From contig JBBCAV010000107.1 of the NCBI GenBank assembly GCA_051382305.1, positions 1 through 49,382 on the forward strand: a stretch of DNA of 49,382 bases, in the 5' to 3' direction. The notes under the pieces are model-generated. The model had not been told where the DNA came from. It saw only the letters and a list, made by a program, of their open reading frames with translations, and made no database searches. Origin of the DNA: Bdellovibrionota bacterium FG-2 (GTDB lineage: Bacteria > Bdellovibrionota > UBA1018). Shown here piece after piece: positions 1,335-35,331 of this stretch (within the stretch, counting starts at the first letter, position 1; each line of letters opens with the position of its first letter). The position numbers were made by a program, and so were the translations under genes.

Positions 1335-1336
1335 TT

Positions 1337-2329: not shown

Positions 2330-2338
2330 AAGGGGGTA

Positions 2339-2728
2339 TTAGTTTTTAGGGCTCGCCGAGTATCGCTCAAGTTCCTCTTTGACGATCTTTTTTAGTGTCG
2401 CGATGTTAAGCGGTTTTGATTCGTAGCGCTGTATTTTGCCTGCATTGACCGCAGCCTTGGCTGCTTCGAGATCCGCGTAGCCGGTGAGAAGAATTTTGGG
2501 AATTCGCTCGTCTTTTTTGACCACGGCTTTCAATACGTCGTAGCCTTGAATGCCCGGCATGCGCATATCGCAGATTATGAGATCAAAATGCTCTTCCATC
2601 TTTTGGAGCGCTTCCTCGCCTGAAAGAGCCGAGATGACGTTGTAATCATCTGAAAGGGCGTCCGTTAGTCCTTCGATAATATCGGCTTCGTCATCGACGA
2701 TCATTATGGTGTATTTTTTTTCGGTCAT
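2339..2728 (-). CDS. single-domain response regulator
   Basis: Receiver motifs IVDDE, ICDMRMP, LTGY, SKP. Confidence 0.9.
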   Translation of the reverse strand: MTEKKYTIMIVDDEADIIEGLTDALSDDYNVISALSGEEALQKMEEHFDLIICDMRMPGIQGYDVLKAVVKKDERIPKILLTGYADLEAAKAAVNAGKIQRYESKPLNIATLKKIVKEELERYSASPKN

Positions 2729-9441: not shown

Positions 9442-10257
9442 TTAGGTTTTCAGGCGGCGAAACGCTTTATTGATTTCGATGAAGTGATTATGCGCCTTCT
9501 GCTGGACTTCAGCCGTTTGAGTCGCATATCTGTCCGGATGATAAAGACCTGCCATTTTGCGATAGGCTTTGTGGATTTGCTCTGACGTCGCTGATTTATC
9601 GATGCCTAGAATTTCGTAAAAACTGTTTTTGTCTATAATGCATGCGTTTGGCGCAATCGTGCTAAACAGTCGGTCAAAGGCCTGTGGAGTGACCCCCATT
9701 TGGGCCGCAATCCAACGAAGTCCTGCTATCTCATCACGCTCAATCACTCCGTCGACATGGAAAAAGACGATGAGTAATTTTAACAACTCCTGCTTCCCTT
9801 CTAAGGGGAGCGTGCGACGTACGAGTTTGCACATCTGTTCAATTTGCTGAGCTTGCAGCGCATCTGAAAGCCGTTTTTGGCTCGTGATGATCTCAGAGAG
9901 TTTATCGGCGATGTCTTCGGGGAGCACGTTTTTAAATCGTCTTTTGATTTTTTCAGGGCTCGGTAGCGTGTGGTCCGGTGTACTTAGCCGCAGGAGATAG
10001 ACACTGAACGTGAGAAAACAATAAAAAACTAAACCTTGGGTGAGGGCTCCGGCGAGTGTTTTTCGGATCTTTCCCAGTTGATCGGCCGCGCGTTTTCCGT
10101 GCCCAATCATGCGCCCGGAGCGATGGGCGATTTCGTAAAAGATTCCTTTTAAAAGTTCGGTTTTTTTTGTCATTGCCATGGTTTGGATTCCAGCTTTAGC
10201 AGGAGGTGTGGCGCTTGAGAATGGTGAAATGAGCCGAGAAGAGAACTTTCTATTCAT
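9442..10257 (-). CDS. DjlA-like protein (TerB-like domain plus C-terminal J domain)
   Basis: HVDGVIERDE TerB-like motif. J domain FYEILGI...KAYRKMAGLYHPDR...EINKAF. Confidence 0.85.
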   Translation of the reverse strand: MNRKFSSRLISPFSSATPPAKAGIQTMAMTKKTELLKGIFYEIAHRSGRMIGHGKRAADQLGKIRKTLAGALTQGLVFYCFLTFSVYLLRLSTPDHTLPSPEKIKRRFKNVLPEDIADKLSEIITSQKRLSDALQAQQIEQMCKLVRRTLPLEGKQELLKLLIVFFHVDGVIERDEIAGLRWIAAQMGVTPQAFDRLFSTIAPNACIIDKNSFYEILGIDKSATSEQIHKAYRKMAGLYHPDRYATQTAEVQQKAHNHFIEINKAFRRLKT

Positions 10258-10348
10258 TCGATAGTCTCCCGAATTGAAGAATATATCGTATGCGAGATTA
10301 TGTAGGAAAGTAGGTTAAGCTCCCGCCGAAATCCCCGGCCTATATCGC

Positions 10349-12391
10349 CTAACACCACGGAGCAACCTTATCCCTTATCCCCTTGACCCACGGCACTTCG
10401 CCCAAGCTTTCGGCATCGGTTCCTGTGCAAATATGGAGCTCAGTGAAGCCTCGGTCGTGAAGGATCTTCGAAACGGTAAGTCCTGACGCTCCATCGGCAA
10501 GCCACAGATCCACGAAGACCGGGGTTGAACGATCAAGCACTGCTGCGATGCTTTCGAATTGTTCAAGCGAGTCAAAGCTCCTGAACTCCTTTTTGTTTGT
10601 AACGGCGCTAAATCTCCAAGCGTCCCGAATAACCTCATCGTCGTCGATCAAAATGGCGTCAAAATAGCCTCCCAGTGCGACATCGCGAGCCGGGGCCTCC
10701 GAAATAACCGGGACTACTCCCGAGAGCCCCTTAGGGATCATCCGGACGCCAAGCTCCTGAGCACGGGCCAAAATGGATGGTTCATCGAAGCGACTTGTGA
10801 CCAAAATGGCGCTATCTGCAATCCCAAGACGTTTGATGCAATCGAGCCCATTCTCGTCGTGTCCGAGAAATTCATAATCAACAAGATATAGTGCGCCATC
10901 TATTGAGTCGGTAACTTCTTGAGGCGAAGAATAATGAAGCAGGTTTATCCCCGTGGTTTCCAGCTCTGGAACCTTGAATCGCCCATTCCAAACGTGATGG
11001 ATACTCAAATCATCATCCAATATGACAATGCACTGATTGGGTTTTAGTTCGATCTTGGGGACAAACCAAGCCGGAGCGCTGGCGCGTGGGATGCGCAGGG
11101 TGATCGAAGTGCCATGCCCTTCTTTTCCGCTATCTGAAACTTGAGAAATAATCTCCAGTGACCCTCCCCAGGATTCAATCGTACGCTGCGCATGATAAAG
11201 TCCGAGCCCTGAGCCGCCCTCTTTGTCGTAAGTTTCGCCGCGTTGGCCTAAACGCGCAAGAACTTGGGGGGGGATCCCTTTTCCGTTATCTCGTACTTCA
11301 ATCATGACCTGCGATGAAGAGGCGGTAAGAAAAATTTCGACTTTACCCGCATCGATTATTGACTCAACGCTGTTGTTAATGAGGTTTGAAAGAACGCGCC
11401 TAAATTCAGTCGGCTGAATATCTGCAAATGCTCCATAGCTACCAGAGCAAAAAGAAGATTGGCTGTCGATTTCGACATTGAGGCGGGGACGGTATTGATT
11501 TCTCTTTTCTGCCACTAATTCGTCAACCAGAGTTGAAAGCAACTGCACTGATTTTGACTCGCCCTCTATTTCAACCATTTGAATGGTTCTCAAGGCTACG
11601 GGGCGTTTGAGATCATGGGCGATATCGCGAATCCTCGTAACGGCACGACGAAGGGAAAGTCGCTTCTCCTCTGCGATCTCAGGCACCGTGTTGAGAATCA
11701 TATCAATAGCAGTGATTGGCGAGCGAATGTCATGGGCCACTTGTTGCCCTCGGTGAATCACCGCTTGCGAGATCGCTTCACTCGTTTTCGTTCGTTGCGC
11801 TTCAGCAAACGCTTGACGATGCTCTTCGAACTCTTGAATATGAAGGGGGGAGTTAGAGAGCATACCTTCTGTTAGCGGCTGCAAGATCTCATTGCGGAGG
11901 CTTCCCTCGATTCTGCGAATCAATACGAATAGTCCCGTTATGGGCGCCGCTGAAAAAAGGATCAAGCCTAAGAGTGAACCCTTTCCGTGGAACCAAGGAA
12001 CTCCTAACCGCATCTCATAATCTGCAAAACCTGAGATTGGTGCGCGGATGATTTCGTCTGAAAATATAAGGCCTTTTCTGGGCGATGCGGAGGGGCATTC
12101 CATATTTGAAAGTCGAGATGATACGGTGATCCTTTTCTTAAAACACAGCGCAGCGCACGAGCTACCGATCTGCCATTCGCTGGCATTTAGGGTCGATTCA
12201 ATGAGGGTGCGATTGTTTTGTTTTAAAGCAATACCGGCGACTTCAGTCATGTGGCGCAGAGCCTTGGCGCGATATTCGCCAGCCTCTTGCCTTAGCCGAA
12301 AAAGCTGCACAGACGCCAATGCAATGACTATCGCAGCGATAGCAAAAAGCGGCAGCCTCGTTTTTCGGTAAAACCAGTGTTTAAGCCTCAT
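10349..12391 (-). CDS. membrane hybrid histidine kinase with two C-terminal receiver domains
   Basis: Two TM segments, QVAHDIRSPI, NLINNSVES, DNGKG, GSGLGL. Receivers VILDDD...LVDYEF...VTSR...IPK and LIDDD...FVDLWL...CTG...RDK. Confidence 0.88.
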   Translation of the reverse strand: MRLKHWFYRKTRLPLFAIAAIVIALASVQLFRLRQEAGEYRAKALRHMTEVAGIALKQNNRTLIESTLNASEWQIGSSCAALCFKKRITVSSRLSNMECPSASPRKGLIFSDEIIRAPISGFADYEMRLGVPWFHGKGSLLGLILFSAAPITGLFVLIRRIEGSLRNEILQPLTEGMLSNSPLHIQEFEEHRQAFAEAQRTKTSEAISQAVIHRGQQVAHDIRSPITAIDMILNTVPEIAEEKRLSLRRAVTRIRDIAHDLKRPVALRTIQMVEIEGESKSVQLLSTLVDELVAEKRNQYRPRLNVEIDSQSSFCSGSYGAFADIQPTEFRRVLSNLINNSVESIIDAGKVEIFLTASSSQVMIEVRDNGKGIPPQVLARLGQRGETYDKEGGSGLGLYHAQRTIESWGGSLEIISQVSDSGKEGHGTSITLRIPRASAPAWFVPKIELKPNQCIVILDDDLSIHHVWNGRFKVPELETTGINLLHYSSPQEVTDSIDGALYLVDYEFLGHDENGLDCIKRLGIADSAILVTSRFDEPSILARAQELGVRMIPKGLSGVVPVISEAPARDVALGGYFDAILIDDDEVIRDAWRFSAVTNKKEFRSFDSLEQFESIAAVLDRSTPVFVDLWLADGASGLTVSKILHDRGFTELHICTGTDAESLGEVPWVKGIRDKVAPWC

Positions 12392-12409
12392 GAGGCAGAA
12401 GTCTCCCGC

Positions 12410-13945
12410 TCATTTTAATTCAAAAATATCGACGTGACCGTAGTTGCGGGTCACCAACTGAGCCGAAACTTTTACCCGATCCTGTTTAATGATTGCAACC
12501 GCCCTGCTAAAACCCATATGAACAAAGGGTACCTGTTCTAGTGCGGCCCTGGAAACCTTTTTATAGTGAGCACTGAGTTCGTCGGGTTGCAAAATATTGC
12601 GTCCCTCTTCTAAAAGGTCTCCTACCTCTTCGCGAAAGGTAATGGGGGAGAGGATTGATCCGCGTTTGCCCAAGGCATGATAAATTCCGTCAGGATCCCC
12701 ATTCATCACGCTAAACGTGGTGCCGATGAGATCATAATCAGATTTTTGGTAAACGGTGTGGGCATACTCAGTTGCGGGAATGCTGCGCGATTTGTCCGAA
12801 ACTGCGATTCCGTATTTTTTGAACTCCTCGCGTATCCAAGCGCCTACGGCATCATTGATCAAAACAATGGGTTGTTTCTGGGATGCGGCGGCCAGCTCCG
12901 GAATAAATTTCTCACCCTCTTTTATGATTTGCAGCGCCTCTTCGTCACTGATTCGCCCTCCTTGGATAGGAAGAAAAATTTGAGGGTCAGGCGTAAAATA
13001 CTCTTTGGCTCCGATTAGGTTGGGCTCGCTGGCCATGCGCTGGTACAAAATCGCCTGTAGCGCACGTCGTAGCCTTGGGTTTGCAAATAGATGTCCTGAA
13101 TTGCCGTTAACGTTGAGAATAATGTGGATTGCCTCAGGCCCAGGAAGAACTTGGAGGTCTGGGTTTTTAGAAATATCCGAAAGCACTCGGGATCCCATGG
13201 TGTATGCCACTGCGTCTAAGCGATCTTCTGCGAGACTTTGCTTCAATTCACTAGAGGGGACAAAGGACAATTCGACAATAGAGAGTTTGCTCGTTTCAGC
13301 GTGTTGAGGGTTGGGAAGAAAACGCAATTTGTGAGGAGAGATTTCCTCAATGACATATTTTCCAGTGCCGATCAAGTGATCCCCTGAGTGTCGGAAGGCA
13401 GCTAATCTCGCGCCATAAAAATACTCGAGTGCCATTCGAAAGGGCTTCTTAAATCGAACGAGCAGGGTTTCTTCATCTACAACCAGAATTCCGGAAATTG
13501 TTCCCGCCTTCTCAAAATCTTCGAAGCCTTCGATTTGGTAAAGGACATCCAATAGGCTGCTGTTGGCGGATTTGGGTTCTAGCCGGTAGGACTCCTCCCA
13601 TGAGCGCTTGAAGTCTTCAGCTTTTAACGTGCTTCCATCCGAAAACCGCTTCGCAGTGTCGATTTTGAAGGTGAAGAGTTTATAATCTACAGAGGTGTCC
13701 CAAGACTTGGCTCCTCCGGGCTGTAAAATACCCTGGTCATCAACGCCGACAAGCGTATCAAATTGATTAGAGAGAACCAAGCCCGCCCAAAGTGTGTGTT
13801 GGAGTCCGGGGTGTAGAGATTTCCACTCGCCACCGATTCCGATGCGGATTGGCCCAGTGGGGGGAGTGGGCTTATTTAAAATGATTGCCATAGTAATGCC
13901 TCCAACCGCTAAAAGAAGAAGCGGCATCCAGCGGTTTAGTTTCAT
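12410..13945 (-). CDS. family-5 (OppA/DppA-like) substrate-binding protein, N-terminally anchored
   Basis: FDTLV...PGGAKSW...FTFKI...RFSDGSTLKAEDFKRSW, IGTGKY and EQVPFV are typical of SBP family 5. Start taken at MKLNRW (13945). Confidence 0.85.
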   Translation of the reverse strand: MKLNRWMPLLLLAVGGITMAIILNKPTPPTGPIRIGIGGEWKSLHPGLQHTLWAGLVLSNQFDTLVGVDDQGILQPGGAKSWDTSVDYKLFTFKIDTAKRFSDGSTLKAEDFKRSWEESYRLEPKSANSSLLDVLYQIEGFEDFEKAGTISGILVVDEETLLVRFKKPFRMALEYFYGARLAAFRHSGDHLIGTGKYVIEEISPHKLRFLPNPQHAETSKLSIVELSFVPSSELKQSLAEDRLDAVAYTMGSRVLSDISKNPDLQVLPGPEAIHIILNVNGNSGHLFANPRLRRALQAILYQRMASEPNLIGAKEYFTPDPQIFLPIQGGRISDEEALQIIKEGEKFIPELAAASQKQPIVLINDAVGAWIREEFKKYGIAVSDKSRSIPATEYAHTVYQKSDYDLIGTTFSVMNGDPDGIYHALGKRGSILSPITFREEVGDLLEEGRNILQPDELSAHYKKVSRAALEQVPFVHMGFSRAVAIIKQDRVKVSAQLVTRNYGHVDIFELK

Positions 13946-13964
13946 AAATTGCCTGCGTTTTGAG

Positions 13965-14321
13965 CTAGCCCCATCCGCCGCCACCGCCGCTTGCAATGTG
14001 TGAGCTGAGGTTTTTATCATTCATCTGAAGAAGCCCGTTTTTCATTAGGGTTTGTATTGCCTGATTGAACTTTGCGTTTAGCTCGTCTTCATTCTTGATC
14101 GCGCTGGCATCGCGGAAGCGAGCAATGGCGTTGTCAATCGTGGTTTCGGTCTCAAAATCATTAAAAAGCTGTCCTTTGATTTTGAGGGCGTCGCCTAAGA
14201 GGATTCCATTTTGGACTTCACCTTCCATGGATGAGAGTTCTGAGGTCGCAGCAAGCGAAACCGAAGCAATCGGCATCACGGCTAATGCCGTCAAAATCAA
14301 TTTACGAAATCGCAGTTTCAT
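13965..14321 (-). CDS. secreted PqqD/RRE-like protein with a Gly/Trp tail; candidate RiPP precursor
   Basis: Sec signal MKLRFRKLILTALAVMPIASVSLA. PqqD-like helices TTIDNAIARF...ELNAKFNQAIQTLMKNGLLQ. Tail SSHIASGGGGGWG. AGGAG RBS 7 nt before ATG 14321. Confidence 0.6.
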   Translation of the reverse strand: MKLRFRKLILTALAVMPIASVSLAATSELSSMEGEVQNGILLGDALKIKGQLFNDFETETTIDNAIARFRDASAIKNEDELNAKFNQAIQTLMKNGLLQMNDKNLSSHIASGGGGGWG

Positions 14322-15417
14322 ACGCATACTCCTTTTGGGGTTTTGGTTGGGATTTGGGGTGGGTTTTAATGTTAGAGACTAGCCAACAGCCTGGATCGGC
14401 GGCCAGATAATCTCCTGTTTCGGCATAAGCCGCATTGCGATCCCCGCCGCAGCGATCAAAATGGGGGCATTCCCCACAGACTTTGATTTTACCTCGGCGA
14501 AGAGCCACAAAAATAGGATGATTGAAGAAAAGTGTTTCAAGTTTACCGTCTGGGACACTTCCCAGTTTCAAGCGGGAACGACTAGACGCGAGAAGTTGGC
14601 CCTGATAATCGATGACAAGTCCTTCCCAAAATCTACCACTTCTTCCTAAACCCGGGTGCAGAAGTGTATAGAGGGGGTGATTCGTGTGGGTCCTGACTCC
14701 GGTTCGTGCCGACTCGATTAGGATGGACTGGTAGGCACTTTTTAAAGCAAGTGGAGTAAGAGGTGCGGGTGAATTTGGGCGAGGTTGGTCTTTTTGAATA
14801 AGCCGAGTGAAGCTCATGTGACTCACTCCGACTTTCTTAGCTAAGTCAAAAAATGCGGGAATTTTGGAGGCACTGTTTTGAGCGAGAATGGCTTGAAAAT
14901 AAGCACTAATCCCATGGCTCATTAGAAATTTCGCGCAGGCAGTGGCTTTATCGAAGCTCCCCACCCCTCGAATAAGGTCATGAGATCCAGCGTCCGGTGC
15001 ATCTAAGCTAATTTGAACTGAGACTTCGGAGAAGCGCTTGAGCAAATCGGTACTGAGGCGCTCAGGCAAGGTGCCGTTTGTGAGAATCACGATGCGGGAC
15101 TTCGAGTTCTTCTTATGAATCCAATCTAAGAGGGGGCGAAAATGAGGACTCAGTGCGGGCTCGCCGCCACAAAGGAGAATCATGGGGCGGAACCGCAGCC
15201 TCGTAATCATCACAAAATACTGATTAAGAATGTTGATCCATTCGGGCAGATCGATGGCACCATCGTTTACATGGTTGGGGTGATAACAGTGAGCGCATCG
15301 CAAGTTACAAAGGTTTGTAATGTCGAGCTGAATGGGTAGATACCGATCAACATCGATCCAGGCCAGAAGCTCGTTTTCAATGCCCCTGAAAAGGCGAGGC
15401 AAAAGGGAGAGTGTCAC
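14302..15417 (-). CDS. radical SAM/SPASM domain protein
   Basis: CNLRCAHC (CxxxCxxC), GGEP, ILTNG, QISLD...HDLIRG. C-terminal CGECPHFDRCGGDR...DPGCW. Confidence 0.92.
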   Translation of the reverse strand: MTLSLLPRLFRGIENELLAWIDVDRYLPIQLDITNLCNLRCAHCYHPNHVNDGAIDLPEWINILNQYFVMITRLRFRPMILLCGGEPALSPHFRPLLDWIHKKNSKSRIVILTNGTLPERLSTDLLKRFSEVSVQISLDAPDAGSHDLIRGVGSFDKATACAKFLMSHGISAYFQAILAQNSASKIPAFFDLAKKVGVSHMSFTRLIQKDQPRPNSPAPLTPLALKSAYQSILIESARTGVRTHTNHPLYTLLHPGLGRSGRFWEGLVIDYQGQLLASSRSRLKLGSVPDGKLETLFFNHPIFVALRRGKIKVCGECPHFDRCGGDRNAAYAETGDYLAADPGCWLVSNIKTHPKSQPKPQKEYAYETAIS

Positions 15418-15641
15418 ATTCTTGCTCCTGGCGCAGCGCCAGCCTTTACAGCCTCTTTCATGACTCGAAGGTGATCGAGACTTGCATGGATACGCTTTAG
15501 GGCCGTCTGGTATAAGGGGGCACCACTGTTCGGGTCATTTGCTTTGCCAAACGATGCATCGCAAATCGTTTGAAGCGCGCCTATGTTTCCCCGGAGGTCG
15601 TGATAGATCTTTTCAAGTTCTGCCAGTGAAATCGTTGTCAT
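15414..15641 (-). CDS. stand-alone HisKA/DHp-like small protein
   Basis: H-box-like IYHDLRGNIGAL followed by a second helix (YQTALKRIHASLDHL). No ATPase domain. Confidence 0.55.
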   Translation of the reverse strand: MTTISLAELEKIYHDLRGNIGALQTICDASFGKANDPNSGAPLYQTALKRIHASLDHLRVMKEAVKAGAAPGARM

Positions 15642-17277
15642 CGTGTGGCTCCTGTCTTTTAGGTTTTGCGTTTTTTCTATCTTGTTTTTCTTGTGCTTTT
15701 TGTTTTCGCCCTAAAACGCTTTTGCTCTCTTGGCGAATATGGGCGGTTTTTAAGCGCATACTGAGGCCGCCTTGAGAAATCTTTAGAACTTGAGCCAAGT
15801 CCTTGCCTTTGGGGTATTTTTTGCTTCCGTTTTCAATGATTTTGTCGCTCAAGATCTCAAGCAAAGGGCCAAGTCCTGTAAATCCTGGGCCTACGACGTC
15901 GAGTTCGGCCTTCAGGAGTTGTTTTAAGGTAATTACGTTATCGGTGTCACCTCTAGAAGGCGCGTTCTTCCTGCCCGTGAAGATTTGCGGAATCGATTGC
16001 CAGTTACTGAAATCAGGCTTGCGGTCTCGGTCGCGGGGAGAGAGAGCAAAAAGTCGGCCCAAGAGGTGGTTGATGCCGCGCACGTTGCCATCAGGCGGAT
16101 TATCTATTACCGCTTGAATGAAGTTTTGAGGGAGATCCTCAAAGGCGACGATCGCTCCAGCTTCTCTTGCCATCGCCGGAACGCGGGAGCGAATGAGCTC
16201 TGGAATATCAACTTCTCTTTCGGAAAGACTCGGCATTCTAACGACGAATGAGGAGATTCGCATGAAGAGATCTTCGCGAAATTCGCCTTCCTGTACCATC
16301 GTCTCAAGATCTCGATTGGTCGCGCAAATGAGTTTAAAATTGGATGTTATGATCGTGTTGCCGCCGACCCGTGTGAAGGTGCCTTCTTCGATGACCTTGA
16401 GGAGTTTGACTTGGAGGTCAAGTGAAGCTTCACCGATTTCATCTAAGAAAATCGTTCCGCCATTTCCGAGTTCAAAAATACCGGATCGGGCTTTCATCGC
16501 TCCTGTGTAGGCTCCTGCATCGTGCCCGAAAAGTTCGCTTTCAACAAGGTTGGGGGCCATGGCTCCCATGTTTTTTTCGATAAAGGGTCGCTCTGATTGA
16601 TTGAGGTAAGCGCGTCTAAGTTCGTTTACAATTTTAGCGTAGGTTGATTTTCCGGTCCCCGTCTCACCCAAAATCAAAAGTGGGTAATTGCTTTGTGCAA
16701 ACAGGGGGGCTTGTTGTCTGAGTTGTCTAATCGGAAGAGAAATTCCGGCTAATTCTGGTGTTTCAGGTTTTGAAGCCTTTGTAGAAGAAGCCTGACCCAA
16801 TTCAGCAAGCGAGCGCTCCTTTACCAATTTGCTGTGATGAATGGCGGCCTTGATTTGCTCGCGCAATAAATCGTCTGAGGTTCCTTTTACGTAATAGCCA
16901 AAGGCGCCAAGCTTAATTGCCCTTACCGTGTCTTGATGGTCAGTGCTCCCCGTTACAACCAGGATTTGAAGGCGGGGCTGAAGCTGAAGAAATTTACCGA
17001 TGAAATTGATTCCATTTGATTCTGGATCAGGGTTCTCAACAGAGTCACTCAAGTTCTTGTCGAGTATCATGATTTGAATGGGGGTTTCTGAGAGGATTCG
17101 CAGGGCCTCTTGTGCATTTGAGCAGTAGAGAGCGCGAAGATTTTTTGTATCTTCGTCTTCTTTTAAAATGAGCTTCATTTGCTCGTGCATGAACTCGTCG
17201 TCATCCAGCATGAGGATGGTGGCCTCATGTTTGAAGTCAGGGGGAAGGGACTTATAGTTTTGGGACTTGAGAATCAT
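15613..17277 (-). CDS. NtrC-family sigma-54-dependent response regulator (REC-AAA+-HTH)
   Basis: REC LDDD...ILDKNL...VTG...VK. Walker A GETGTGKS, ESELFGHDAGAYTGA, FLDEIGE, ATNRDL, FREDLF. HTH KDLAQVLKISQGGLSMRLK. Confidence 0.93.
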   Translation of the reverse strand: MILKSQNYKSLPPDFKHEATILMLDDDEFMHEQMKLILKEDEDTKNLRALYCSNAQEALRILSETPIQIMILDKNLSDSVENPDPESNGINFIGKFLQLQPRLQILVVTGSTDHQDTVRAIKLGAFGYYVKGTSDDLLREQIKAAIHHSKLVKERSLAELGQASSTKASKPETPELAGISLPIRQLRQQAPLFAQSNYPLLILGETGTGKSTYAKIVNELRRAYLNQSERPFIEKNMGAMAPNLVESELFGHDAGAYTGAMKARSGIFELGNGGTIFLDEIGEASLDLQVKLLKVIEEGTFTRVGGNTIITSNFKLICATNRDLETMVQEGEFREDLFMRISSFVVRMPSLSEREVDIPELIRSRVPAMAREAGAIVAFEDLPQNFIQAVIDNPPDGNVRGINHLLGRLFALSPRDRDRKPDFSNWQSIPQIFTGRKNAPSRGDTDNVITLKQLLKAELDVVGPGFTGLGPLLEILSDKIIENGSKKYPKGKDLAQVLKISQGGLSMRLKTAHIRQESKSVLGRKQKAQEKQDRKNAKPKRQEPHDDNDFTGRT

Positions 17278-17336
17278 TAGGGCACCTCACCTGGGGTGTG
17301 CTTATAGCTCAGTGCGGCAATGGATGCAAATCTTAA

Positions 17337-17434
17337 TTCAAATTTTTGAAAATCTGGTTTTTCAAGTTTCCGGGGCTTGAGGGCATAAAATATTCAATTT
17401 TTTGAACTTTTCGTTCAAAATTCTAAATTTTGAA
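17337..17434. promoter_or_regulatory. repeated TTCA-N6-TGAA palindromes, candidate enhancer (UAS) sites
   Basis: TTCAAATTTTTGAA (17337-17350), TTCAATTTTTTGAA (17393-17406) and TTCTAAATTTTGAA (17421-17434), about 100-200 bp upstream of the -24/-12 site. Confidence 0.55.
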
Positions 17435-17536
17435 TTTTTTCGGATTGTCCTTGATGTCGTTTTTTGTGGGTCGGAAACATTTTTTTAATGAGTACTAACG
17501 AGGTGTTGTGCCGAGTTTTTCGCCTTTTTTGCGCGG

Positions 17537-17551
17537 TGGCACAGATCATGC
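17537..17551 (+). promoter_or_regulatory. sigma-54 (-24/-12) promoter of the T4SS operon
   Basis: TGGCACAGATCATGC = TGGCAC with exact GG-N10-GC spacing, ending 53 nt before the first ATG (17605). Confidence 0.75.
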
Positions 17552-17604
17552 CTTATGGGTTCCCGTTCGGCACAACTTTTCCCGAACAGAAAGAGCAGTA
17601 AAAT

Positions 17605-17892
17605 ATGGATCATGATTCAAATAGACGAATTAAGCTAACGAAACTTCCCTCGGAAGTCTTCAAAGAATGTCCACGGTGCGAGAGCCCTAAGCTCCTTAGG
17701 TTTGAAGGAGAGGTCTTCTGTCTTTGTTGCGATTGGGACAGCATCAAGCTTCACATGGATTGCCAGATGTCTGGCTATCACCTGCTGAATCCAAGGTGGC
17801 CACTTCCGGGGCTTAGGACAAAGGCACTAGCGCAAGCTGAAGCCGATGGGCCATCCGACGACGTAATCGAAGACGCAATCGAAATTGTCTAA
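17605..17892 (+). CDS. small Zn-ribbon protein
   Basis: CPRC...CLCC spacing. First gene after the sigma-54 promoter. Confidence 0.6.
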   Translation: MDHDSNRRIKLTKLPSEVFKECPRCESPKLLRFEGEVFCLCCDWDSIKLHMDCQMSGYHLLNPRWPLPGLRTKALAQAEADGPSDDVIEDAIEIV

Positions 17893-17922
17893 TCAACACT
17901 AATTATAAAGGGGGATTAAAAA

Positions 17923-18141
17923 ATGAACTCAATAACTGTTTCCGAAATAAAACAAACGCTCGATGTGGTCCGGCTTTGTCAAGTCGTGGCCCAAAGTTTC
18001 AAGGGGCTGTTCCGAAAGACGTGGCAGCGCTTTGATACCATGAACCGTGATTCTGCCGAGATTCAGCGCAGGATTGAACTAAGCAAAACGAATTGGGACT
18101 CGGCTAACGGGTACTATTCTTATCTTCGTGATTTTCGATAA
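17923..18141 (+). CDS. hypothetical protein
   Basis: AAGGGGGA RBS; in the operon. Confidence 0.55.
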   Translation: MNSITVSEIKQTLDVVRLCQVVAQSFKGLFRKTWQRFDTMNRDSAEIQRRIELSKTNWDSANGYYSYLRDFR

Positions 18142-18622: not shown

Positions 18623-18802
18623 ATGATGATTCCAATTGAAACTGAATTTGATCGAATGTTCAAACTTGTAACGAAGGCTGAGCGAAGCCAAAATGAGCGC
18701 TTAATCCGAAAGATGAAGCAGATCCGAAATACGCTTTATGCGCTCAAGTTTTCGATGGAGAGACAAAAGGCTTTGAGATCTCGCGCTCGAGCAGGTTCAT
18801 GA
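18623..18802 (+). CDS. small basic helical protein
   Basis: AAAGGA RBS before ATG 18623. ATGA overlap with traU. Confidence 0.5.
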   Translation: MMIPIETEFDRMFKLVTKAERSQNERLIRKMKQIRNTLYALKFSMERQKALRSRARAGS

Positions 18803-19815
18803 AGAAGTTGTTCCTCTGCCTTCTCCCTCTGGTCACGCTGATTCCGAGTGGCGCGGCTGCTTTTCCAAACGTGTGCACGGTGGTCAAAACGCCTGAGTTT
18901 AGATCGTGCCTGGATTTTAAGGTCGGAAGCTGCATGTGCGGGTTTCCGGTTCCCAGGCCTTGTGCACATTTTAGTTACTATGTGCCCGAAACGTTTGTTG
19001 AGGCGATGCCAAATCCGAAAGAAACGTATTTCTCCTCCTTGCCAGGGACGGCAACGCAGCTTTCGACGCTTACGGGAGGTAAAACCCCTTACGGCGCCGA
19101 AAGCGACGATGATACGCAGTCGTTTCATGCCCACGTTCTTCAAGTGCCGTTGACTACGATTCCGTTTTCATTGCTTCCGTGCAGTATCTCTCCGGTGGAT
19201 CTTACTTGCTTTGAGGGAATGAGCGAGCAGTTGGGGCAGCTATGGAATACTGGGAGTGCGGATCAGTGGCAACCTGGGTATCTGGCGTGGAGCCTTTCGC
19301 CTAAGGCGTGCATGCTCAAGGGTGCGGCCACTTCGATTACGGGGGAGCCTGATCCAAGTGCATATCCTGCTCCTCACGCTTGTAGTGTTCCAATGAGTTT
19401 TATGGCGAGATTTCCGCCATCGACCCATTCGGCATGCAACGGCTGGGGGACGTTTTATCCGCGCTACGGGAGTTACAATGGCTCTAGTCCCACGATTGGG
19501 GCACTGATGATTGCCTCACGGATGAAGAGCCTTGCGACCGAAGTGTTTCACGCGAATCCTTCTTATGTGGACGAAAAATGGCAGATGATTACTCCTCAAT
19601 CGTCTTCGTGTTTTAAGGAAGGGCAAAACATTGGAGCGCTAGAGACGATCAAGGGTGTTAGAGAGACGGGGCGGTTTGCCTCTGGAAAAATGAAGGGCTA
19701 CCTCTTTACGAATTGGCGCCAGGTGACTTGTTGCCGAGATTTGCCCTTGGTGCCGGAGGCGTATATTGCGATCGAAACTCTGAATTCGGTTTGCCAGGGG
19801 GCGGGTGATTTGTGA
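18799..19815 (+). CDS. traU: TraU-family periplasmic conjugation protein
   Basis: Signal peptide, Cys-rich, with GWGTFYPRYG, KWQMITPQSSSC and WRQVTCC. Confidence 0.75.
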   Translation: MKKLFLCLLPLVTLIPSGAAAFPNVCTVVKTPEFRSCLDFKVGSCMCGFPVPRPCAHFSYYVPETFVEAMPNPKETYFSSLPGTATQLSTLTGGKTPYGAESDDDTQSFHAHVLQVPLTTIPFSLLPCSISPVDLTCFEGMSEQLGQLWNTGSADQWQPGYLAWSLSPKACMLKGAATSITGEPDPSAYPAPHACSVPMSFMARFPPSTHSACNGWGTFYPRYGSYNGSSPTIGALMIASRMKSLATEVFHANPSYVDEKWQMITPQSSSCFKEGQNIGALETIKGVRETGRFASGKMKGYLFTNWRQVTCCRDLPLVPEAYIAIETLNSVCQGAGDL

Positions 19816-20909
19816 CCAGTAGTGCTTTTGAAGACTGTTTTCATGACATGATCGTCTCTGCGTGTAAAGCGGACGCAAGTGACATTCACATTGAGCCCAA
19901 GGCGGATGCGCTTAAGATCAGGTTTCGCATTGATGGGGATTTGGTGAGCTGGAAAAGTTTTCCAGCAGAGTTTCGAAGGGGGCTTATTTTTGAAATCAAG
20001 CGCAAGACACGGCTGTCAATCGGCGTAAGCCATCGCGATCTCGATGGCAGGGTGTCCCTGCCTGAGTACGGGGTTGATTTGAGATCAAGCTCCGCCCCAA
20101 CTTTGTTTGGAGAGAAGATTGTTCTTCGGATTTTGAGTCAGAAAAAGTCTTTTAGGCTGCTTGATCAGGGTTTTACCGAAAAGACGGCAGGACATTTGAA
20201 GGGCGCATTAGAGCACGAAAATGGGCTGATTCTGATATCGGGTGCGACGGGGAGTGGAAAAACTACAACCCTTTATTCACTCTTGCGTGAGGCCGACACG
20301 GAGAAGCTTAACATTGTGACGATCGAGGATCCGGTGGAATATCTTTTGGCTGGGATTACCCAGATAAATGTGACGCCTAAGTTCTCTTTTGCGCAGGTCC
20401 TGCGAGCAATTCTCCGCCAGGATCCCGACGTTATTTTAGTGGGGGAGGTGAGGGACGCGGAAACTGCGGATCTTTGTCTAAAAGCTGCGGCCACCGGCCA
20501 TCTCGTTATATCGACGATCCACGCCAACGGAGCGATTGAGGTGATTGGGCGGTTGTTGAATTTGGGGGTCGATGCGGACCTTGTAAAATCGTGTCTTAGG
20601 TTTTCAGGAGCGCAGCGGTTGGTGAGACGGCTTTGCCCTTTTTGCTCAAAGCCTTCGAATGCGCTCGGCGGCGGTCAAAGCAGGGTTCGAGCTCAGAATC
20701 TAGAGGGCTGCTCTAAATGCCTTGGAGGTACAAAGGGGCGGGTTCCGGTATTGGAGTATCTCACCTCGGATGAACTCGTGAAATACTTTGGTGAGGGGGG
20801 TGGTCTTGCGCGGCTTACTCAATCGTTTTCTGAGTCGTATCGGGATCATGTGGAAGCGGGAGTGGTTGCGACGGCTGACTCTCAAAAAATGGGTGGTCAG
20901 ACGTCCTGA
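19812..20909 (+). CDS. GspE/PilB-family secretion ATPase
   Basis: ASDIHIEP, RFRIDG, GATGSGKTTTLY, TIEDPVEY, LRQDPDVILVGEVRD, TGHLVISTIH, Zn-finger CPFC...CSKC. Confidence 0.92.
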   Translation: MTSSAFEDCFHDMIVSACKADASDIHIEPKADALKIRFRIDGDLVSWKSFPAEFRRGLIFEIKRKTRLSIGVSHRDLDGRVSLPEYGVDLRSSSAPTLFGEKIVLRILSQKKSFRLLDQGFTEKTAGHLKGALEHENGLILISGATGSGKTTTLYSLLREADTEKLNIVTIEDPVEYLLAGITQINVTPKFSFAQVLRAILRQDPDVILVGEVRDAETADLCLKAAATGHLVISTIHANGAIEVIGRLLNLGVDADLVKSCLRFSGAQRLVRRLCPFCSKPSNALGGGQSRVRAQNLEGCSKCLGGTKGRVPVLEYLTSDELVKYFGEGGGLARLTQSFSESYRDHVEAGVVATADSQKMGGQTS

Positions 20910-21094
20910 CACATTGAACGCAACTGGGCCATGCCCTTCAAGGCCAATTGTGACCCCGTCTATGTTTTGTCTGCCTTTTGTTTCATCGCCTTCCCCTCAG
21001 CATGAAGGCCCACAATATTCAAAACCTGCCTAGTAAGTTGCCAGTCGAAATTTAATTTTTTTCCAAACCTCAAACCAACATCGGAGACAAACTC

Positions 21095-21892
21095 ATGATC
21101 GGAATTGTTCTTTTCCTCATCGCTTATTCCGCGCGTGTTGCCAAAGCGGCGACGGACTTCAATTATTTTAGCGGCGCAATCGACTACTGGAATGAGCCGG
21201 TGAAACCCATCCGTCCTCAAACCTCCACGCCGGTTTCACGAACAATCGCGACGCCCACCTCGGTGCCTGAGACAAAACCCGACACCAAAGAAGAACCCTT
21301 CTCTTGGTCCAAGCACCTCGACCCCAAAAACAAGGAGTTTTTCAAAGAGGGGGATTACACACCGCCCGAACCCTTCTTAGAAGTCATTCGTAACCCTAAT
21401 GACGAAAACATCAAAAACTGGTTTGCTTACATCGACAAGAAAAATGAACTGGCCAGACGTCTTCAGGAACGCTTCAAAGAGTACCTGGGAAAAAAATCCG
21501 GAATTCCCCCCGAAAGAAAAGCTGAGATCACCGCGACGATCCAAGCAAAGATTGAAAAAGTTTCCAACGTCAATCCCGAGGCCAAACGCTATCGGTTCAG
21601 ACTCTACTTTGACTCTCATTGCCCCCATTGCCAACACATGCTTCAGACGATGACTGAACTCCAGCGCAGAGGGTTTTATGTCGATGCTAGACAAATCGAT
21701 ACGGACACGAAGGGGCTTGAAGGCTTAACTTTTCCGGTGGAGCGCGCGAAGGGCTACGAACTCACGGAAAAGAATATTAAAAGTGTCCCATACCTTTTGG
21801 TAGGCGATTTAAAACGACGGCTAATCATCCCAGTTGCTGGCTATGAGTCAGTGGATGGGGTGTTACAGAAACTTTCTACCGAAAAAGAGTAA
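21095..21892 (+). CDS. exported thioredoxin-fold protein (TraF/TrbB-like)
   Basis: Signal peptide, LYFDSHCPHC and a cis-Pro-like SVPYL, in T4SS context. Confidence 0.65.
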   Translation: MIGIVLFLIAYSARVAKAATDFNYFSGAIDYWNEPVKPIRPQTSTPVSRTIATPTSVPETKPDTKEEPFSWSKHLDPKNKEFFKEGDYTPPEPFLEVIRNPNDENIKNWFAYIDKKNELARRLQERFKEYLGKKSGIPPERKAEITATIQAKIEKVSNVNPEAKRYRFRLYFDSHCPHCQHMLQTMTELQRRGFYVDARQIDTDTKGLEGLTFPVERAKGYELTEKNIKSVPYLLVGDLKRRLIIPVAGYESVDGVLQKLSTEKE

Positions 21893-22012
21893 TCGAAAAA
21901 ATACAGTTCTTTTCTATCGCCTACGGACACTCATCCGCGGCGCTCCCTTAACAACAAACACAAAGCCCTCCACCGCCACAGGCGAGAGCTTTCAAATACA
22001 AAGGACTAATTT

Positions 22013-22555
22013 ATGATTGATGATAACCTTATTCTACAAGCGCCCATGCCTCTTGATGATCATGCCGGGATCATTGTTCGCCCAGGTGGCCCGCGCCGCC
22101 CCGACAAAACCGAAGTGATATTGCTTGTGGTGTTTTTTCTTATCACCACGGTTATCCTCATGATCGCAGGCTCCCTAGGCGATCAGGCCGCATTAGCTGC
22201 GACATTGCCCGATACAGGGGGACCCGATGCGGCTGAAAAGCTGCAAGCCGCTTCGACACTCCTTCATATAGCGGATCTGAGCATTTTTCAGTGGGGGGCG
22301 CGAGTCTTCTCTGGTCTTTGCATCATGTCCTCGGCGTGGGCACTAAAGGAGCAGCGCTTCGGAATGGCTGGTCTCTCGCTTGCCGGAGCCATTCTCTTTG
22401 GTACGGCTCCTAAGTGGGTCAAAAACATCTTCGAAATCAGTGGCGAGCAAGGGCTTTTTACTCAACTCGAACTGCGCAATTACGACTACAGAACAGAAGT
22501 CACGAAAGCCTTTGGTTCATCAGTGGTGGCGGCATGCACGACTATCAAAGTCTAA
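22013..22555 (+). CDS. pilin-like (TraA/VirB2-like) membrane protein
   Basis: Leader plus two hydrophobic segments, located directly upstream of traL-traE-traK-traB. Confidence 0.45.
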   Translation: MIDDNLILQAPMPLDDHAGIIVRPGGPRRPDKTEVILLVVFFLITTVILMIAGSLGDQAALAATLPDTGGPDAAEKLQAASTLLHIADLSIFQWGARVFSGLCIMSSAWALKEQRFGMAGLSLAGAILFGTAPKWVKNIFEISGEQGLFTQLELRNYDYRTEVTKAFGSSVVAACTTIKV

Positions 22556-22857
22556 AGCGTCACCACGGGAACCGCGTGAGTCAGACTATTGATTCCCCAA
22601 TCATGATCTTTGATTTCTGGGAGTTGTCTGACGCCTTCGGCGCTCTCTTCATTGTGCTGATCTTTGGGGTGCTTTTTTACTCGTGGGGCACAATGTTTGT
22701 CTTGCTCCTGCTTACGATGTGTCTTGTGCCCATTATTAGAAAGCAATCCCCACGAGGAATCTTCTTCCACTGGCCGTTCCGATTCCTGGGCGTCAAGCTT
22801 CCTGGCCTCCTAAACCCTAAAGCGTACTTCGGAGCACCCGTCAAATACTCCGATTAA
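22534..22857 (+). CDS. traL: TraL-like protein
   Basis: VSQTIDSPIMIFDFWELSD, two TM segments and PRGIFFHW, in the canonical position. Confidence 0.6.
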   Translation: MHDYQSLKRHHGNRVSQTIDSPIMIFDFWELSDAFGALFIVLIFGVLFYSWGTMFVLLLLTMCLVPIIRKQSPRGIFFHWPFRFLGVKLPGLLNPKAYFGAPVKYSD

Positions 22858-22935
22858 CCCAAAATTAGAAAGGAACTGAAAAATGTCTGTAAACCAAACG
22901 TCTGTAAAACAAACCAATAACGAAAGGAACCAAGA

Positions 22936-23202
22936 ATGGAAAAATCAAACTATGAACGAAAATCAAATCTCAAACCCACCCAACAAGAAGGAGAAAGGAA
23001 ATTTGGTAAGCGCGAGCCCATCCGAGAATTCAAAGCCCAACTCTCTGAAGACGGAAGATACTGGATCTTCCGAGATGTTACGACGTGGCTTATCCCCGTT
23101 AATTATCTTTTGGCTATCACGAAGAGCAAGGCTGATCGCGAGCTTGAGCCAGTTGATGGCGAAAGTGAAACGGATCGGGATGGCGATGATCGGACCTCTT
23201 GA
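22936..23202 (+). CDS. hypothetical cytoplasmic protein
   Basis: Own GAAAGGA RBS and protein-like composition. Overlaps an unlikely N-terminal extension of the traE frame. Confidence 0.5.
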   Translation: MEKSNYERKSNLKPTQQEGERKFGKREPIREFKAQLSEDGRYWIFRDVTTWLIPVNYLLAITKSKADRELEPVDGESETDRDGDDRTS

Positions 23203-23899
23203 AAAAGGAATGGAGCAAGCCAAGGTCGTGACTCCCCCTCGGGGGACTTACGAGGGCGTGGATCTGAGAGTGCTGCCCAAATACATTGCGTTTAGGGCGG
23301 CACTCTTAAGAACGCAGCTCTCGCAGCAGTACATGATCTTGGTCTTAGCCACACTGCTTATTGGCTACTTTGCGCTTAGTCGTCAGGAAGTTTACCGACT
23401 GAATGAACGGCTCAGGCTCAAAGAGTACATCCTAGCTCCTGGGGTCGCCGATTTTACGCCGGCGGCCCCTCAGTCGGTCTCGGAGCATTATGTTGAGCAG
23501 GCGGTGTCGGACTTTGTGAGCCAATTGGGAAACGTCACTCCTGGAAGTATCGATGATCAGTATCTGGTGCTCTCGGGTTCGATGAGTCGTGAGCTTCGTG
23601 TCAAGTTTTTGGCCGAGGCAGGGGAGTGGAAATCTAAAGTCAAAGCGGATCGAATTTCTGAGCTCCTGACGATTACGGACAAATCTATCCAGTCTTCAGG
23701 GGATGGATCTTACCGAGCCGTCATTCACGCCAAGCGCGATCGGTATTTGGATAACCAATACGTAGGGCAGTCAAGCGAAGTGATCGAGATGGAGCTAAGG
23801 CTTGTACCACCGCAAAACGCAAAGCGCTGGTACTTAGAAATCCAATCTCTTTCTCGACAATCGCCTGAAGCTTTTCGCTCTAAAAAGGAGGTCAAATGA
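23180..23899 (+). CDS. traE: TraE-like protein (start uncertain, 23180 or 23210)
   Basis: Single TM followed by VSEHYVEQ...LGNVTPGSIDDQ, positioned between traL and traK. Confidence 0.65.
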   Translation: MAMIGPLEKGMEQAKVVTPPRGTYEGVDLRVLPKYIAFRAALLRTQLSQQYMILVLATLLIGYFALSRQEVYRLNERLRLKEYILAPGVADFTPAAPQSVSEHYVEQAVSDFVSQLGNVTPGSIDDQYLVLSGSMSRELRVKFLAEAGEWKSKVKADRISELLTITDKSIQSSGDGSYRAVIHAKRDRYLDNQYVGQSSEVIEMELRLVPPQNAKRWYLEIQSLSRQSPEAFRSKKEVK

Positions 23900-24699
23900 A
23901 TTTCTATCAGTCAGCGGTGTTTGTCTTGGTCATGGGTCTTTGCCTTCAGCACAAGGCGATTGCAAAGACCATTTACTATGGCAGCGAAACGGAGGTCGTA
24001 AGCTTAGTTGCGGGGGGGCCGACTTTGTTTCGGTTCCCGTCCGAGGTTAAGACTATTTCGCAATCAAAGCGATTTACGATTGCACCTGCAACTCACGATC
24101 AACCCAATTACGCGCTTTTGTCAGTCCAGCCTAGGGTTGGTTCGGGTGGCTCAAGTGTCGTGACTTTCATCTTGAGCGACGGGACCATTATCAAAGTGAA
24201 GCTCGTGGTCGTGTCGGCTGCGATTCCCGAGAAGACGGATTCGGTCTACGAATTTAAGTCTAAAGAGTCGCTGCTTCCACAATCGGGGGCAGGGAGTCCC
24301 GGATCGGGCGTTTCGGAACTTGAGCTGATGAAGGCGATGCTTCGTGGAGATGAGGTTGCGGGCTATGAGGTGAGAAATCTCACTCGAACTCTCATCCCAG
24401 GATTTAAGGGAGTGACGACGAAACTTCTTCGAGTCTACACGGGCAATCAATTTAATGGCTATATCTTCGAGTTGCACAACAAGACACGAGATCAAAGTCT
24501 ATACATCAATACGCAAAATCTCATGCTTGGCGATCCTAATCTTGCGATTCTTTCTTCAGTGGATCAAGCGGTGATTGAGCCTAAGGGTGAAACGTACTTG
24601 AGGATAGTTGCCAAGCCGACTTCTTCTTACAACCAACTGATTTTACCTGTTGAAACTATCACCGTTCGCGGCGGGGTTTCAGAAAGTGAGCGGAGGTAA
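23896..24699 (+). CDS. traK: TraK-like outer core protein
   Basis: Signal peptide, beta-rich N-domain, ELMKAMLRG...YTG...FELHN C-domain. Confidence 0.65.
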   Translation: MNFYQSAVFVLVMGLCLQHKAIAKTIYYGSETEVVSLVAGGPTLFRFPSEVKTISQSKRFTIAPATHDQPNYALLSVQPRVGSGGSSVVTFILSDGTIIKVKLVVVSAAIPEKTDSVYEFKSKESLLPQSGAGSPGSGVSELELMKAMLRGDEVAGYEVRNLTRTLIPGFKGVTTKLLRVYTGNQFNGYIFELHNKTRDQSLYINTQNLMLGDPNLAILSSVDQAVIEPKGETYLRIVAKPTSSYNQLILPVETITVRGGVSESERR

Positions 24700-24704
24700 T
24701 CGCG

Positions 24705-26015: not shown

Positions 26016-26057
26016 GGCGGATCACTTTGATGGCCGTCAAAAGCGTGATAGGGAAGT

Positions 26058-27023: not shown

Positions 27024-27123
27024 ATAGGCTTTTCGGGAAACGGCTAAGCTAAGTTTACCAGTATTTAGCGTCAAAAAACTAACGCCCTTAACTAACAATA
27101 AAACCATAAACCAAGGAGAACCT

Positions 27124-35249: not shown

Positions 35250-35331
35250 CTACCACAAAAGCCCATCTTGCGTCTGCCAAACCGCTGTTTTGGGAGGGGT
35301 TTGAAATCGTAAATCTTTAATGATATCAAAG

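Follow-up and report, generated by a model that had tools for sequence, protein, structure and literature searches.

Introduction

Peptide control of conjugation is known from Gram-positive plasmids, and to our knowledge the signal control of conjugation known in two-membrane bacteria uses small lactones. The present study concerns a cassette of six genes in a 49,382-nucleotide stretch of DNA from Bdellovibrionota bacterium FG-2 (GenBank assembly GCA_051382305.1, contig JBBCAV010000107.1, positions 1 to 49,382; hereafter the window), where it lies beside the genes of a type IV secretion system (T4SS). The genes encode a sigma-54 activator (A), a small helical protein (B), a radical S-adenosylmethionine (SAM) enzyme (C), a precursor-like protein (D), a solute-binding protein (E) and a histidine kinase (F). 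From sequence comparison, the balance tips slightly towards a self-contained unit which makes and senses a peptide signal and is carried by an integrative T4SS element, and the proposed circuit logic and its link to the T4SS have strong comparative support.

A preliminary description of the locus had likened it to the Vibrio relay, formed by LuxP-LuxQ, LuxU and LuxO. Both arrangements combine a periplasmic binding protein with a membrane hybrid kinase, and both would pass phosphoryl groups to a receiver-bearing sigma-54 activator. The binding protein of the cassette, however, is of the OppA family (SBP_bac_5) and not of the LuxP type, no Hpt domain is encoded and B is a 75-residue hairpin present in few loci, the output consists of T4SS genes, and the signal is presumably a ribosomal peptide from the same operon. 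Moreover, no Qrr RNA reached the Rfam gathering threshold in the window, where a tRNA was the only match. The likeness stands for the hybrid kinase with its receiver and fails for LuxP, the Hpt domain, the LuxO model (see below) and Qrr; on these grounds a Lux system was rejected and the analogy is architectural only.

In the staphylococcal agr system, enzyme, precursor, kinase and regulator also share one operon. The agrBDCA locus resembles the cassette in this grouping of a tailoring enzyme, a precursor peptide, a membrane kinase and a response regulator, in auto-induction, and in a hypervariable precursor-receptor block which is swapped between variants, as in one pair of cassettes described below. 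The cassette differs in that its enzyme is a radical SAM protein and not AgrB, export would be of the Sec type, a solute-binding protein is added, the regulator is sigma-54 dependent and the host is two-membraned.

The enterococcal pheromone plasmids, with their PrgZ/TraC binders, are likewise mobile elements with an OppA-family binding protein in which a peptide cue switches conjugation on. In those plasmids the binder serves the import of the pheromone, which derives from signal peptides of the recipients' lipoproteins and is read by a repressor inside the cell; the binder of the cassette is instead associated with a kinase, and both the precursor and the enzyme to tailor it are encoded on the element. 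The Ti plasmids and ICEMlSym also place a T4SS element of a two-membrane host under control of the density type, but through an acyl-homoserine lactone and a cytoplasmic receptor of the LuxR type, where the cassette would rely on a peptide, a binding protein and a kinase. Finally, a solute-binding protein controls a membrane kinase both in ChiS with its chitin-oligosaccharide binder, which belongs to the same binding-protein family as E, and in AioX-AioS-AioR, where AioR is a sigma-54 activator. Unlike the cassette, these systems respond to environmental ligands, carry no ligand-making genes in the operon and have no link with mobile elements.

Results

A four-gene core with variable regulators

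The open reading frames (ORFs) of the cassette are the following.

15613-17277, minus strand: A, sigma-54 enhancer-binding protein of 554 residues with receiver, AAA+ domain and C-terminal helix-turn-helix-like end, first gene of the cassette (Pfam)
15414-15641, minus strand: B, 75-residue helical hairpin, candidate DHp-like phosphotransfer protein (hhalign, AlphaFold2 model)
14302-15417, minus strand: C, radical SAM enzyme of 371 residues with a reduced SPASM-like C-terminal domain (Radical_SAM PF04055, E 1.7e-14)
13965-14327, minus strand: D, 120-residue precursor-like protein with Sec-signal-like N-terminus, helical middle and variable C-terminal tail (family alignment)
12410-13945, minus strand: E, membrane-tethered OppA-family solute-binding protein (SBP_bac_5 PF00496, E 1.9e-27)
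10349-12391, minus strand: F, hybrid histidine kinase of 680 residues with two transmembrane segments, a periplasmic loop, DHp, HATPase, one clear and one weaker receiver (Pfam, hhalign, fold)

The six ORFs run head to tail over 10349-17277, with overlaps of 29 nt between A and B, 4 nt between B and C and 26 nt between C and D, a further overlap between D and E and a gap of 18 nt between E and F, in agreement with the tightly packed operon described previously. None of the six products reaches a curated NCBIfam cut-off.

The radical SAM gene has two paralogs in the same genome (81% and 79% identity), and two further cassettes were located there: a complete one on contig C168 (L013 8334-15301) and a truncated, rearranged one on contig C206 (L015 337-4329). 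On C206 a VirB3-like ORF is in frame with the C-terminal 227 residues of a sigma-54 activator, which may represent a deletion or recombination joint or an assembly chimera. Orthologs of the enzyme with 35-55% identity were found at E<=1e-30 in 8 of 116 genomes of the order and, at the same threshold, in 17 of 401 genomes sampled from the phylum. Occurrence is patchy, the cassette being absent from the only further genome of the genus. A scan of species-representative genomes with an alignment of the radical SAM enzyme retrieved 286 relatives, of which 64 orthologous loci were analysed; the same scan with a single protein gave 181 pattern matches, none of them confirmed. The two genome sets were drawn from overlapping collections and their counts are not summed. 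By their record titles the relatives belong mostly to Bdellovibrionia, Bacteriovoracia, Oligoflexia or Silvanigrellales, with a few metagenome-assembled genomes (MAGs) labelled Elusimicrobia, Paceibacterota or Bacteroidia.

Over the 64 loci the genes C, D, E and F keep one order. D was detected in 51 of them, E was recognised in 52 and F in 48, most of the misses being due to short contigs or very diverged D genes. A sigma-54 activator lies directly upstream in 21 loci and downstream of the kinase in four (Oligoflexus type), five carry a regulator of about 210 residues with a receiver and a Fis-type helix-turn-helix (Pfam), and the rest have no adjacent regulator. B was recognised by profile in four loci, and by eye a B-like ORF was seen in one more (L071). 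Since regulator and B vary between loci, the core consists of four genes and the six-gene set is one form of it; conservation of all six together, which the preliminary description required, is not seen, A occurring in about a third of the loci.

Several loci deserve separate mention. In the cultured Oligoflexus tunisiensis Shr3 (L052, 10004-16043) the order is radical SAM enzyme, D-like ORF, binding protein, kinase and sigma-54 activator. The D-like ORF carries the N-terminal motif of the family even though the D profile missed it, and its Gly/Ser-rich stretch directly follows the signal-like segment instead of lying at the C-terminus. In a MAG with three copies, insertion-sequence-like genes interrupt the radical SAM gene of L093 (8436-10232) and the activator gene of L069 (5892-9120), so that some cassette copies are probably dead. 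The binding-protein gene is split in two ORFs in L033 (8111-9668) and L034 (11285-12777), by frameshift or sequencing error; both cassettes are without adjacent activator or T4SS genes.

The radical SAM enzyme and its small neighbour

The CX3CX2C motif of C (C37, C41, C44) is invariant in all 19 aligned orthologs, and so are C314, C317, C323 and C344, which form a CX2CX5C motif plus one later cysteine. A full SPASM motif comprises seven cysteines and holds two auxiliary clusters. From these alignments the C-terminal domain of C is predicted to be SPASM-like but reduced and to accommodate a single auxiliary cluster; hence the radical SAM assignment made earlier was correct, while the SPASM assignment is retained for four of the seven cysteines only. 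The nearest solved relatives are PqqE (7.6e-10) and SkfB (3.7e-9), both peptide maturases, with which C shares a radical SAM core followed by a Cys-rich C-terminal domain and an adjoining short precursor gene. C departs from them in its cysteine count, in having no partner of the RiPP (ribosomally synthesised and post-translationally modified peptide) recognition element or PqqD type, and in scoring far below the curated cut-offs: the best NCBIfam match, TIGR04053, gives 99.9 bits for a cut-off of 395, and the top matches, all far below their cut-offs, include the tetrapyrrole enzymes AhbD and NirJ. Only about 30 residues precede the radical SAM motif.

D has no Pfam or NCBIfam family, and ESM Atlas gave no usable match. 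A profile search covering 1.84 billion representatives found 133 family representatives at E<=0.001, 71 of them at E<=1e-10, nearly all of 100-135 residues. Conservation in the family is best in the N-terminal segment, which starts with basic residues, continues with a hydrophobic stretch in which one Pro is invariant, and closes with Ala-rich sequence similar to a signal-peptidase site. The last 8-15 residues are hypervariable, and no Cys is conserved. Among 112 full-length representatives, 52 contain Pro-Ser within the last 14 residues and 25 carry PSx[WYFH] (shuffle mean 0.34), the aromatic residue being the final one in 14 of these 25. A second group of tails is Ser-rich, followed by Ile/Val-Leu/Pro-Pro-Asp/Glu at the end. 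The tail encoded in the window differs from both groups; it is Gly-rich and reads Ser, a Gly run and Trp-Gly.

A small ORF with the same signal-like N-terminus comes immediately after the radical SAM gene in the 21 loci inspected, except that L002 is cut by the contig end and L030 shows only a 40-residue ORF and a tblastn trace. In one database protein of 476 residues (P0139) the radical SAM enzyme reads through into D without a stop, by gene fusion or as a gene-call artefact. The idea that D might be a pilin of the T4SS was rejected, as T4SS-free cassettes encode D as well and its mature portion lacks hydrophobic character. The conserved N-terminal part, the hypervariable tail and the constant position directly 3' of the radical SAM gene bear out the earlier reading of a secreted precursor, and support the view that D behaves like a RiPP precursor. 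A precedent for Sec-signal precursors of the size of D is provided by the bufferins (PMC11626156), RiPP precursors of 80-120 residues which bear a Sec signal at the N-terminus and reach the periplasm after their modification in the cytoplasm. Bufferins are modified at Cys by MNIO enzymes and bind copper, whereas D has no conserved Cys and lies beside a radical SAM enzyme and a sensor.

Binding protein and hybrid kinase

The longest ORF of E starts at 14020 and the likely start is at 13945; a hydrophobic N-terminal anchor can be read from the translation. A search of the Protein Data Bank (PDB) with the family profile placed peptide, OppA, DppE and MppA binders on top and gave 3e-12 for the enterococcal pheromone binder PrgZ (4faj); general oligopeptide and murein-peptide binders are among the nearest solved relatives. 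No ATP-binding cassette (ABC) permease or ATPase genes adjoin E. The orphan peptide-binding protein of the preliminary description is thereby upheld as a family assignment. A complex prediction of E with mature D, run without controls, scored 0.02 and was counted neither for nor against binding.

F shows a clear HATPase_c match (E 2.4e-20) and a HisKA match below the Pfam cut-off, and its C-terminal 236 residues have no Pfam family and gave nothing useful by phmmer against the PDB. The profile of the first receiver, built from nine orthologs, nevertheless matched the receivers of the activator family by hhalign with a probability of 96% (E 4e-9), with the acidic pair and the phospho-Asp in register with receiver domains. 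The AlphaFold2 model of the C-terminal part has a predicted local distance difference test (pLDDT) score of 77, rising above 90 over the first sub-domain, and in Foldseek it gave 85 matches at E<=0.001. Receiver domains or proteins containing them head the list (RR468, CheY, PleD, and those of the hybrid kinases CKI1 and Sln1). The second sub-domain is a weaker receiver candidate, with an hhalign probability of 41%. From the hhalign and fold matches, the hybrid kinase invisible to Pfam but proposed beforehand holds. The cytoplasmic part of F, including the receiver-like tail (10349-11059), has a dozen or more paralogs with about 40% identity on at least 12 other contigs; this type of kinase is a lineage-specific expansion in the genome.

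Activator and hairpin protein

A matches Sigma54_activat (E 1.6e-54) and Response_reg (E 1.3e-13), in line with the sigma-54 activator named in the preliminary description. Its loop reads GAYTGA in translation, the canonical loop of sigma-54 activators being GAFTGA. Against the LuxO model NF041946 it scores 195.4 bits for a cut-off of 800; RtcR, NtrC and other NCBIfam models outscore LuxO, all below their own cut-offs.

B has neither a Pfam or NCBIfam family nor an Hpt domain. Its AlphaFold2 model (pLDDT 80) consists of two helices and not of the four-helix bundle of Hpt proteins, to which B does not belong. All four homologs keep His14 and Asp15, and in an hhalign comparison with the DHp region of the kinases (probability 33%, E 4.6e-4) His14 falls on the H-box His. 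When the profile of B was compared with the ORFs of the loci, the only non-self matches were the DHp segments of two kinases (E about 0.02), and ESM Atlas gave as a lead clusters of 78 residues labelled 'Histidine kinase family protein'. Foldseek returned no match for the model at E<=0.001, the top ten being varied helical hairpins with two kinases among them, and phmmer against the PDB sequences found nothing useful. A stand-alone DHp-like phosphotransfer protein is plausible from the alignment and the model; the HisKA-like assignment proposed earlier is weakly supported.

Putative signal and receptor genes vary together

Many genomes hold two or three copies of the cassette. In one MAG the copies L069 and L082 show 93-99% DNA identity from the 3' portion of the activator gene over most of the radical SAM gene, and 85-89% at the 3' end of the latter. 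Where D begins, identity is down to 47-56%, and across the genes for binding protein and kinase it remains at 53-78%. At the protein level the radical SAM enzymes are 92% identical, the D proteins 49%, the binding proteins 57% and the kinases 66%. The break falls exactly at the junction of C and D, as would be expected after the exchange of a specificity block, and, though a single event, it suggests that D belongs functionally with E and F, and from the drop of identity from the precursor gene through binding protein and kinase we conclude that signal and receptor, as predicted from these genes, swap as one module. The window and C168 are 79% identical in the radical SAM enzyme, 79% in D, 66% in the binder and 68% in the kinase, and their sliding identity shows no sharp breakpoint, being somewhat lower over binding protein and kinase. 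Between C168 and C206 the tail is almost identical and the binder is 92% identical.

Predicted sigma-54 output and association with T4SS genes

The divergent region and the genes it faces contain the following features.

17387-17440, no strand assigned: AT-rich inverted repeats, candidate activator sites about 100-150 nt upstream of the -24/-12 element (repeat search)
17537-17552, plus strand: sigma-54 type -24/-12 element TGGCAC-N5-ATGC (motif match, conserved in the C168 paralog)
17605-18141, plus strand: first genes after the promoter, a 95-residue zinc-ribbon-like protein with four Cys and a 72-residue protein (homologs in C168, 58-60% identity)
18799-30170, plus strand: F-type-like T4SS with TraU, GspE/PilB-like ATPase, TraF, TraE, TraK, TraB/TrbI, TraV and TraC/VirB4 (Pfam, NCBIfam)

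The -24/-12 element is the only match to TGGCAC-N5-NTGC in the window. It sits in the 327-bp divergent region, faces the plus-strand genes and lies about 55 nt before the first start codon; together with the next 40 nt or so it is the best conserved part of the intergenic region in the C168 paralog. Three further species that share the divergent arrangement (L040, L043, L107) carry TGGCAY-N5-TTGTC at the corresponding position. At the position of the inverted repeats the C168 paralog contains a perfect 11/11 palindrome, and the columns of the repeat region are partly conserved. The genome encodes rpoN. These data agree with the earlier proposal of an operon divergent from a sigma-54 promoter leading the T4SS genes, the conserved element being predicted to serve the T4SS side. 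In the window no -24/-12 element faces gene A.

In relatives with the T4SS downstream on the same strand, the -24/-12 element lies just before the activator gene. Upstream of this gene it was found in 12 of the 19 activator-linked loci that had sufficient sequence, for a background of 0.059 per equal stretch, and such a promoter before the activator gene points to an auto-inducing loop.

The zinc-ribbon-like and 72-residue proteins belong to no family that could be found. Homologs of both stand first on the T4SS side in C168, where two tandem copies of the zinc-ribbon gene with its small partner are present (L013 15469-16509; 104 and 72 residues, then 92 and 67 residues). Homologs of the zinc-ribbon-like protein occur in L043 and L107 and, more weakly, in L022, and zinc-ribbon genes also begin the T4SS side in other loci.

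Among the 26 loci with full flanks, T4SS markers lie within 10 kb in 9 of the 14 with an upstream activator and in none of the 12 without one (Fisher p 7e-4, a value to be read with the caution that related genomes are not independent). In the genome set, VirB4/TraC or TraU occurs within 15 kb of 8 of 23 cassettes, and a ninth, on C206, has remnant T4SS genes; eight with usable flanks lack T4SS genes and six are on contigs too short to judge. One of the T4SS-free loci is in a complete single-contig genome, its nearest VirB4 being 420 kb away. In this genome two types of T4SS stand beside the cassette, the F-type-like one of the window (contig C107) and another on C168 with a VirB4-like ATPase, TrbI, coupling protein and integrase. 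The neighbours of activator-free cassettes carry no T4SS marker, and those in the genome set look like housekeeping genes, judged from N-terminal sequences. The co-occurrence of cassette and tra genes recurs in unrelated genomes. Taken together, the comparison indicates a general signalling cassette which appears to have been taken up repeatedly by T4SS elements, each case seen with a sigma-54 activator.

The island and its surroundings

Two features delimit the element in the window.

10168-35331, no strand assigned: island defined by loss of synteny (comparison with one same-genus genome)
34061-35416, minus strand: tyrosine integrase and tRNA-Leu(GAG) at the right end of the island (Phage_integrase, E 1.3e-6)

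The island has no counterpart at the matching flanks of the same-genus genome, with which the window is syntenic up to 10167 on the left and from 35332, that is, from tRNA-Leu, on the right. No att direct repeats were found around the tRNA end or the left border of the island. Within the T4SS, TraC matches TraC-F-type (E 6e-50) and the ATPase a GspE-like model (E 1.5e-90), both in NCBIfam, and the Pfam matches of TraU, TraF, TraE, TraK, TrbI and TraV are weaker. The ATPase is a short GspE/PilB-like protein (365 residues, 19812-20909) lying between TraU and TraF in the F-type-like cluster. Its pairing with TraU recurs in L031, L058, L063 and L087, where TraU forms the C-terminal part of an ORF of about 1000 residues. 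An ORF of 420 residues without family (26058-27320, minus strand) is located on the opposite strand inside the cluster, at a local dip of the guanine-cytosine skew. Outside the island, 96-2728 (minus strand) holds a set of three genes for a histidine kinase, an HD domain protein of the HD-GYP type and a single-domain receiver.

Discussion

The combination of genes described here was presented as new in the preliminary description, and we found none like it in Pfam, NCBIfam, Rfam and the full-text literature outside supplements and subscription journals. As a mechanism we propose that C would modify the C-terminal tail of D in the cytoplasm, that D would be exported by Sec through its N-terminal signal-like segment, and that D or a peptide cut from its tail would be bound in the periplasm by the membrane-tethered E. 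E would then modulate the kinase F, the phosphoryl group passing from the His of F to its receiver and on to the receiver of A, perhaps by way of B. Activated A would bind to the AT-rich repeats and open the sigma-54 promoter for the zinc-ribbon and T4SS genes. The steps differ in strength. It is likely that the activator acts through the sigma-54 promoter on the T4SS side, and equally so that E and F form one sensor feeding A. The modification of D by C is fairly probable; whether the product of D is the ligand of E is evenly poised, and an action of the signal between cells is somewhat doubtful.

Several observations weigh against the self-contained peptide circuit on a T4SS element. Regarding the peptide, the upstream Cys pair and the Cys of the CX3C motif of SPASM are absent from C in all 19 orthologs, Pfam and NCBIfam revealed neither a RiPP recognition element nor a PqqD-like domain or gene in C or its neighbours, D is long for a precursor, and with the same databases no protease or exporter gene was recognised among the cassette ORFs. 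Concerning the relay and its output, a route through B would not be general, as B occurs in 4 of 64 loci although most activator-linked kinases are hybrid; the -12 part of the promoter is ATGC in the window and TTGT in three relatives, not TTGC; and a promoter of the cassette itself was not found in the window, a scan of 10100-17700 for sigma-70 and terminator consensus doing no better than chance. As to the element, a relaxase and a coupling protein were not recognised by Pfam and NCBIfam among the island ORFs of the window, several of which are without family. Five of the 14 activator-linked loci with full flanks have no T4SS marker within 10 kb and, taken with the 12 activator-free loci among unmarked genes, they indicate that the module is not tied to the T4SS as such. 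Finally, the genome is a MAG of 433 contigs, 85% complete and with 4.4% contamination, and consequently the three cassette copies might not share one cell.

The main alternative is a switch within the single cell, in which modified D would stay in the periplasm of its producer and positive autoregulation would lead to a bistable decision on the T4SS, with no quorum signal involved; other integrative elements are known to form transfer-competent subpopulations. This would fit the tethering of E to the membrane, the presence in D of a Sec-type signal only, with no gene for outer-membrane export, protease or ABC exporter in the cassette, and the feedback to be expected from the sigma-54 promoters before the operon in 12 of 19 activator-linked loci. 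The hypervariable tails and the swapped block of D, E and F, however, fit the discrimination between signals, for which a private loop has less need, and genomes often carry two or three diverged copies; we hold this alternative to be unlikely. Quite improbable, in our view, is that E and F respond to an external cue, for instance peptides from prey or from the cell wall, with C and D as a co-regulated modulator, cofactor carrier or protective factor. While the oligopeptide and murein-peptide binders among the relatives of E and the T4SS-free cassettes in ordinary chromosomal contexts would suit such a sensor, C, D, E and F keep together and in order across the phylum, and D diverges with E and F where C stays 92% identical. 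That C does not act on D at all but modifies E or F or makes a small non-peptide ligand, D being an unrelated secreted protein, could draw on the AhbD and NirJ matches and the missing recognition element, and is very improbable given the place of D directly 3' of the radical SAM gene in the loci read, the read-through of the two in one database representative and the peptide maturases as nearest solved relatives of C.

The interpretation given in the preliminary description, in which the island makes and senses a modified peptide, is thus partly supported. Its boldest form, that the radical-SAM-tailored, Sec-exported peptide with its matched binder and kinase is a pheromone encoded by the element, which senses the density or confinement of carrier cells and fires the sigma-54 transfer genes, is tentative, and we regard it as doubtful. 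If it were true, several predators sharing one prey cell would, for instance, be sensed, and co-resident elements would separate their channels by swapping the block of precursor, binder and kinase in the manner of the agr specificity groups. The cassette would then be the first peptide-based, element-encoded quorum control of conjugation in two-membrane bacteria, and its peptides a new RiPP class marked by a C-terminal Pro-Ser-x-aromatic motif.

The self-contained peptide circuit would add a peptide route with its own tailoring enzyme to the control of conjugation in two-membrane bacteria. The D proteins would likely be a new family of radical-SAM-modified, Sec-exported peptides, and the cassette would provide a clear example of a solute-binding protein put to use as receptor for a self-made signal, within a module that occurs with sigma-54 activators, with short receiver-helix-turn-helix regulators or alone. 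As the cassette is present in the cultured Oligoflexus tunisiensis, these ideas are directly testable, and they bear on the timing of mobile-element transfer in predatory bacteria.

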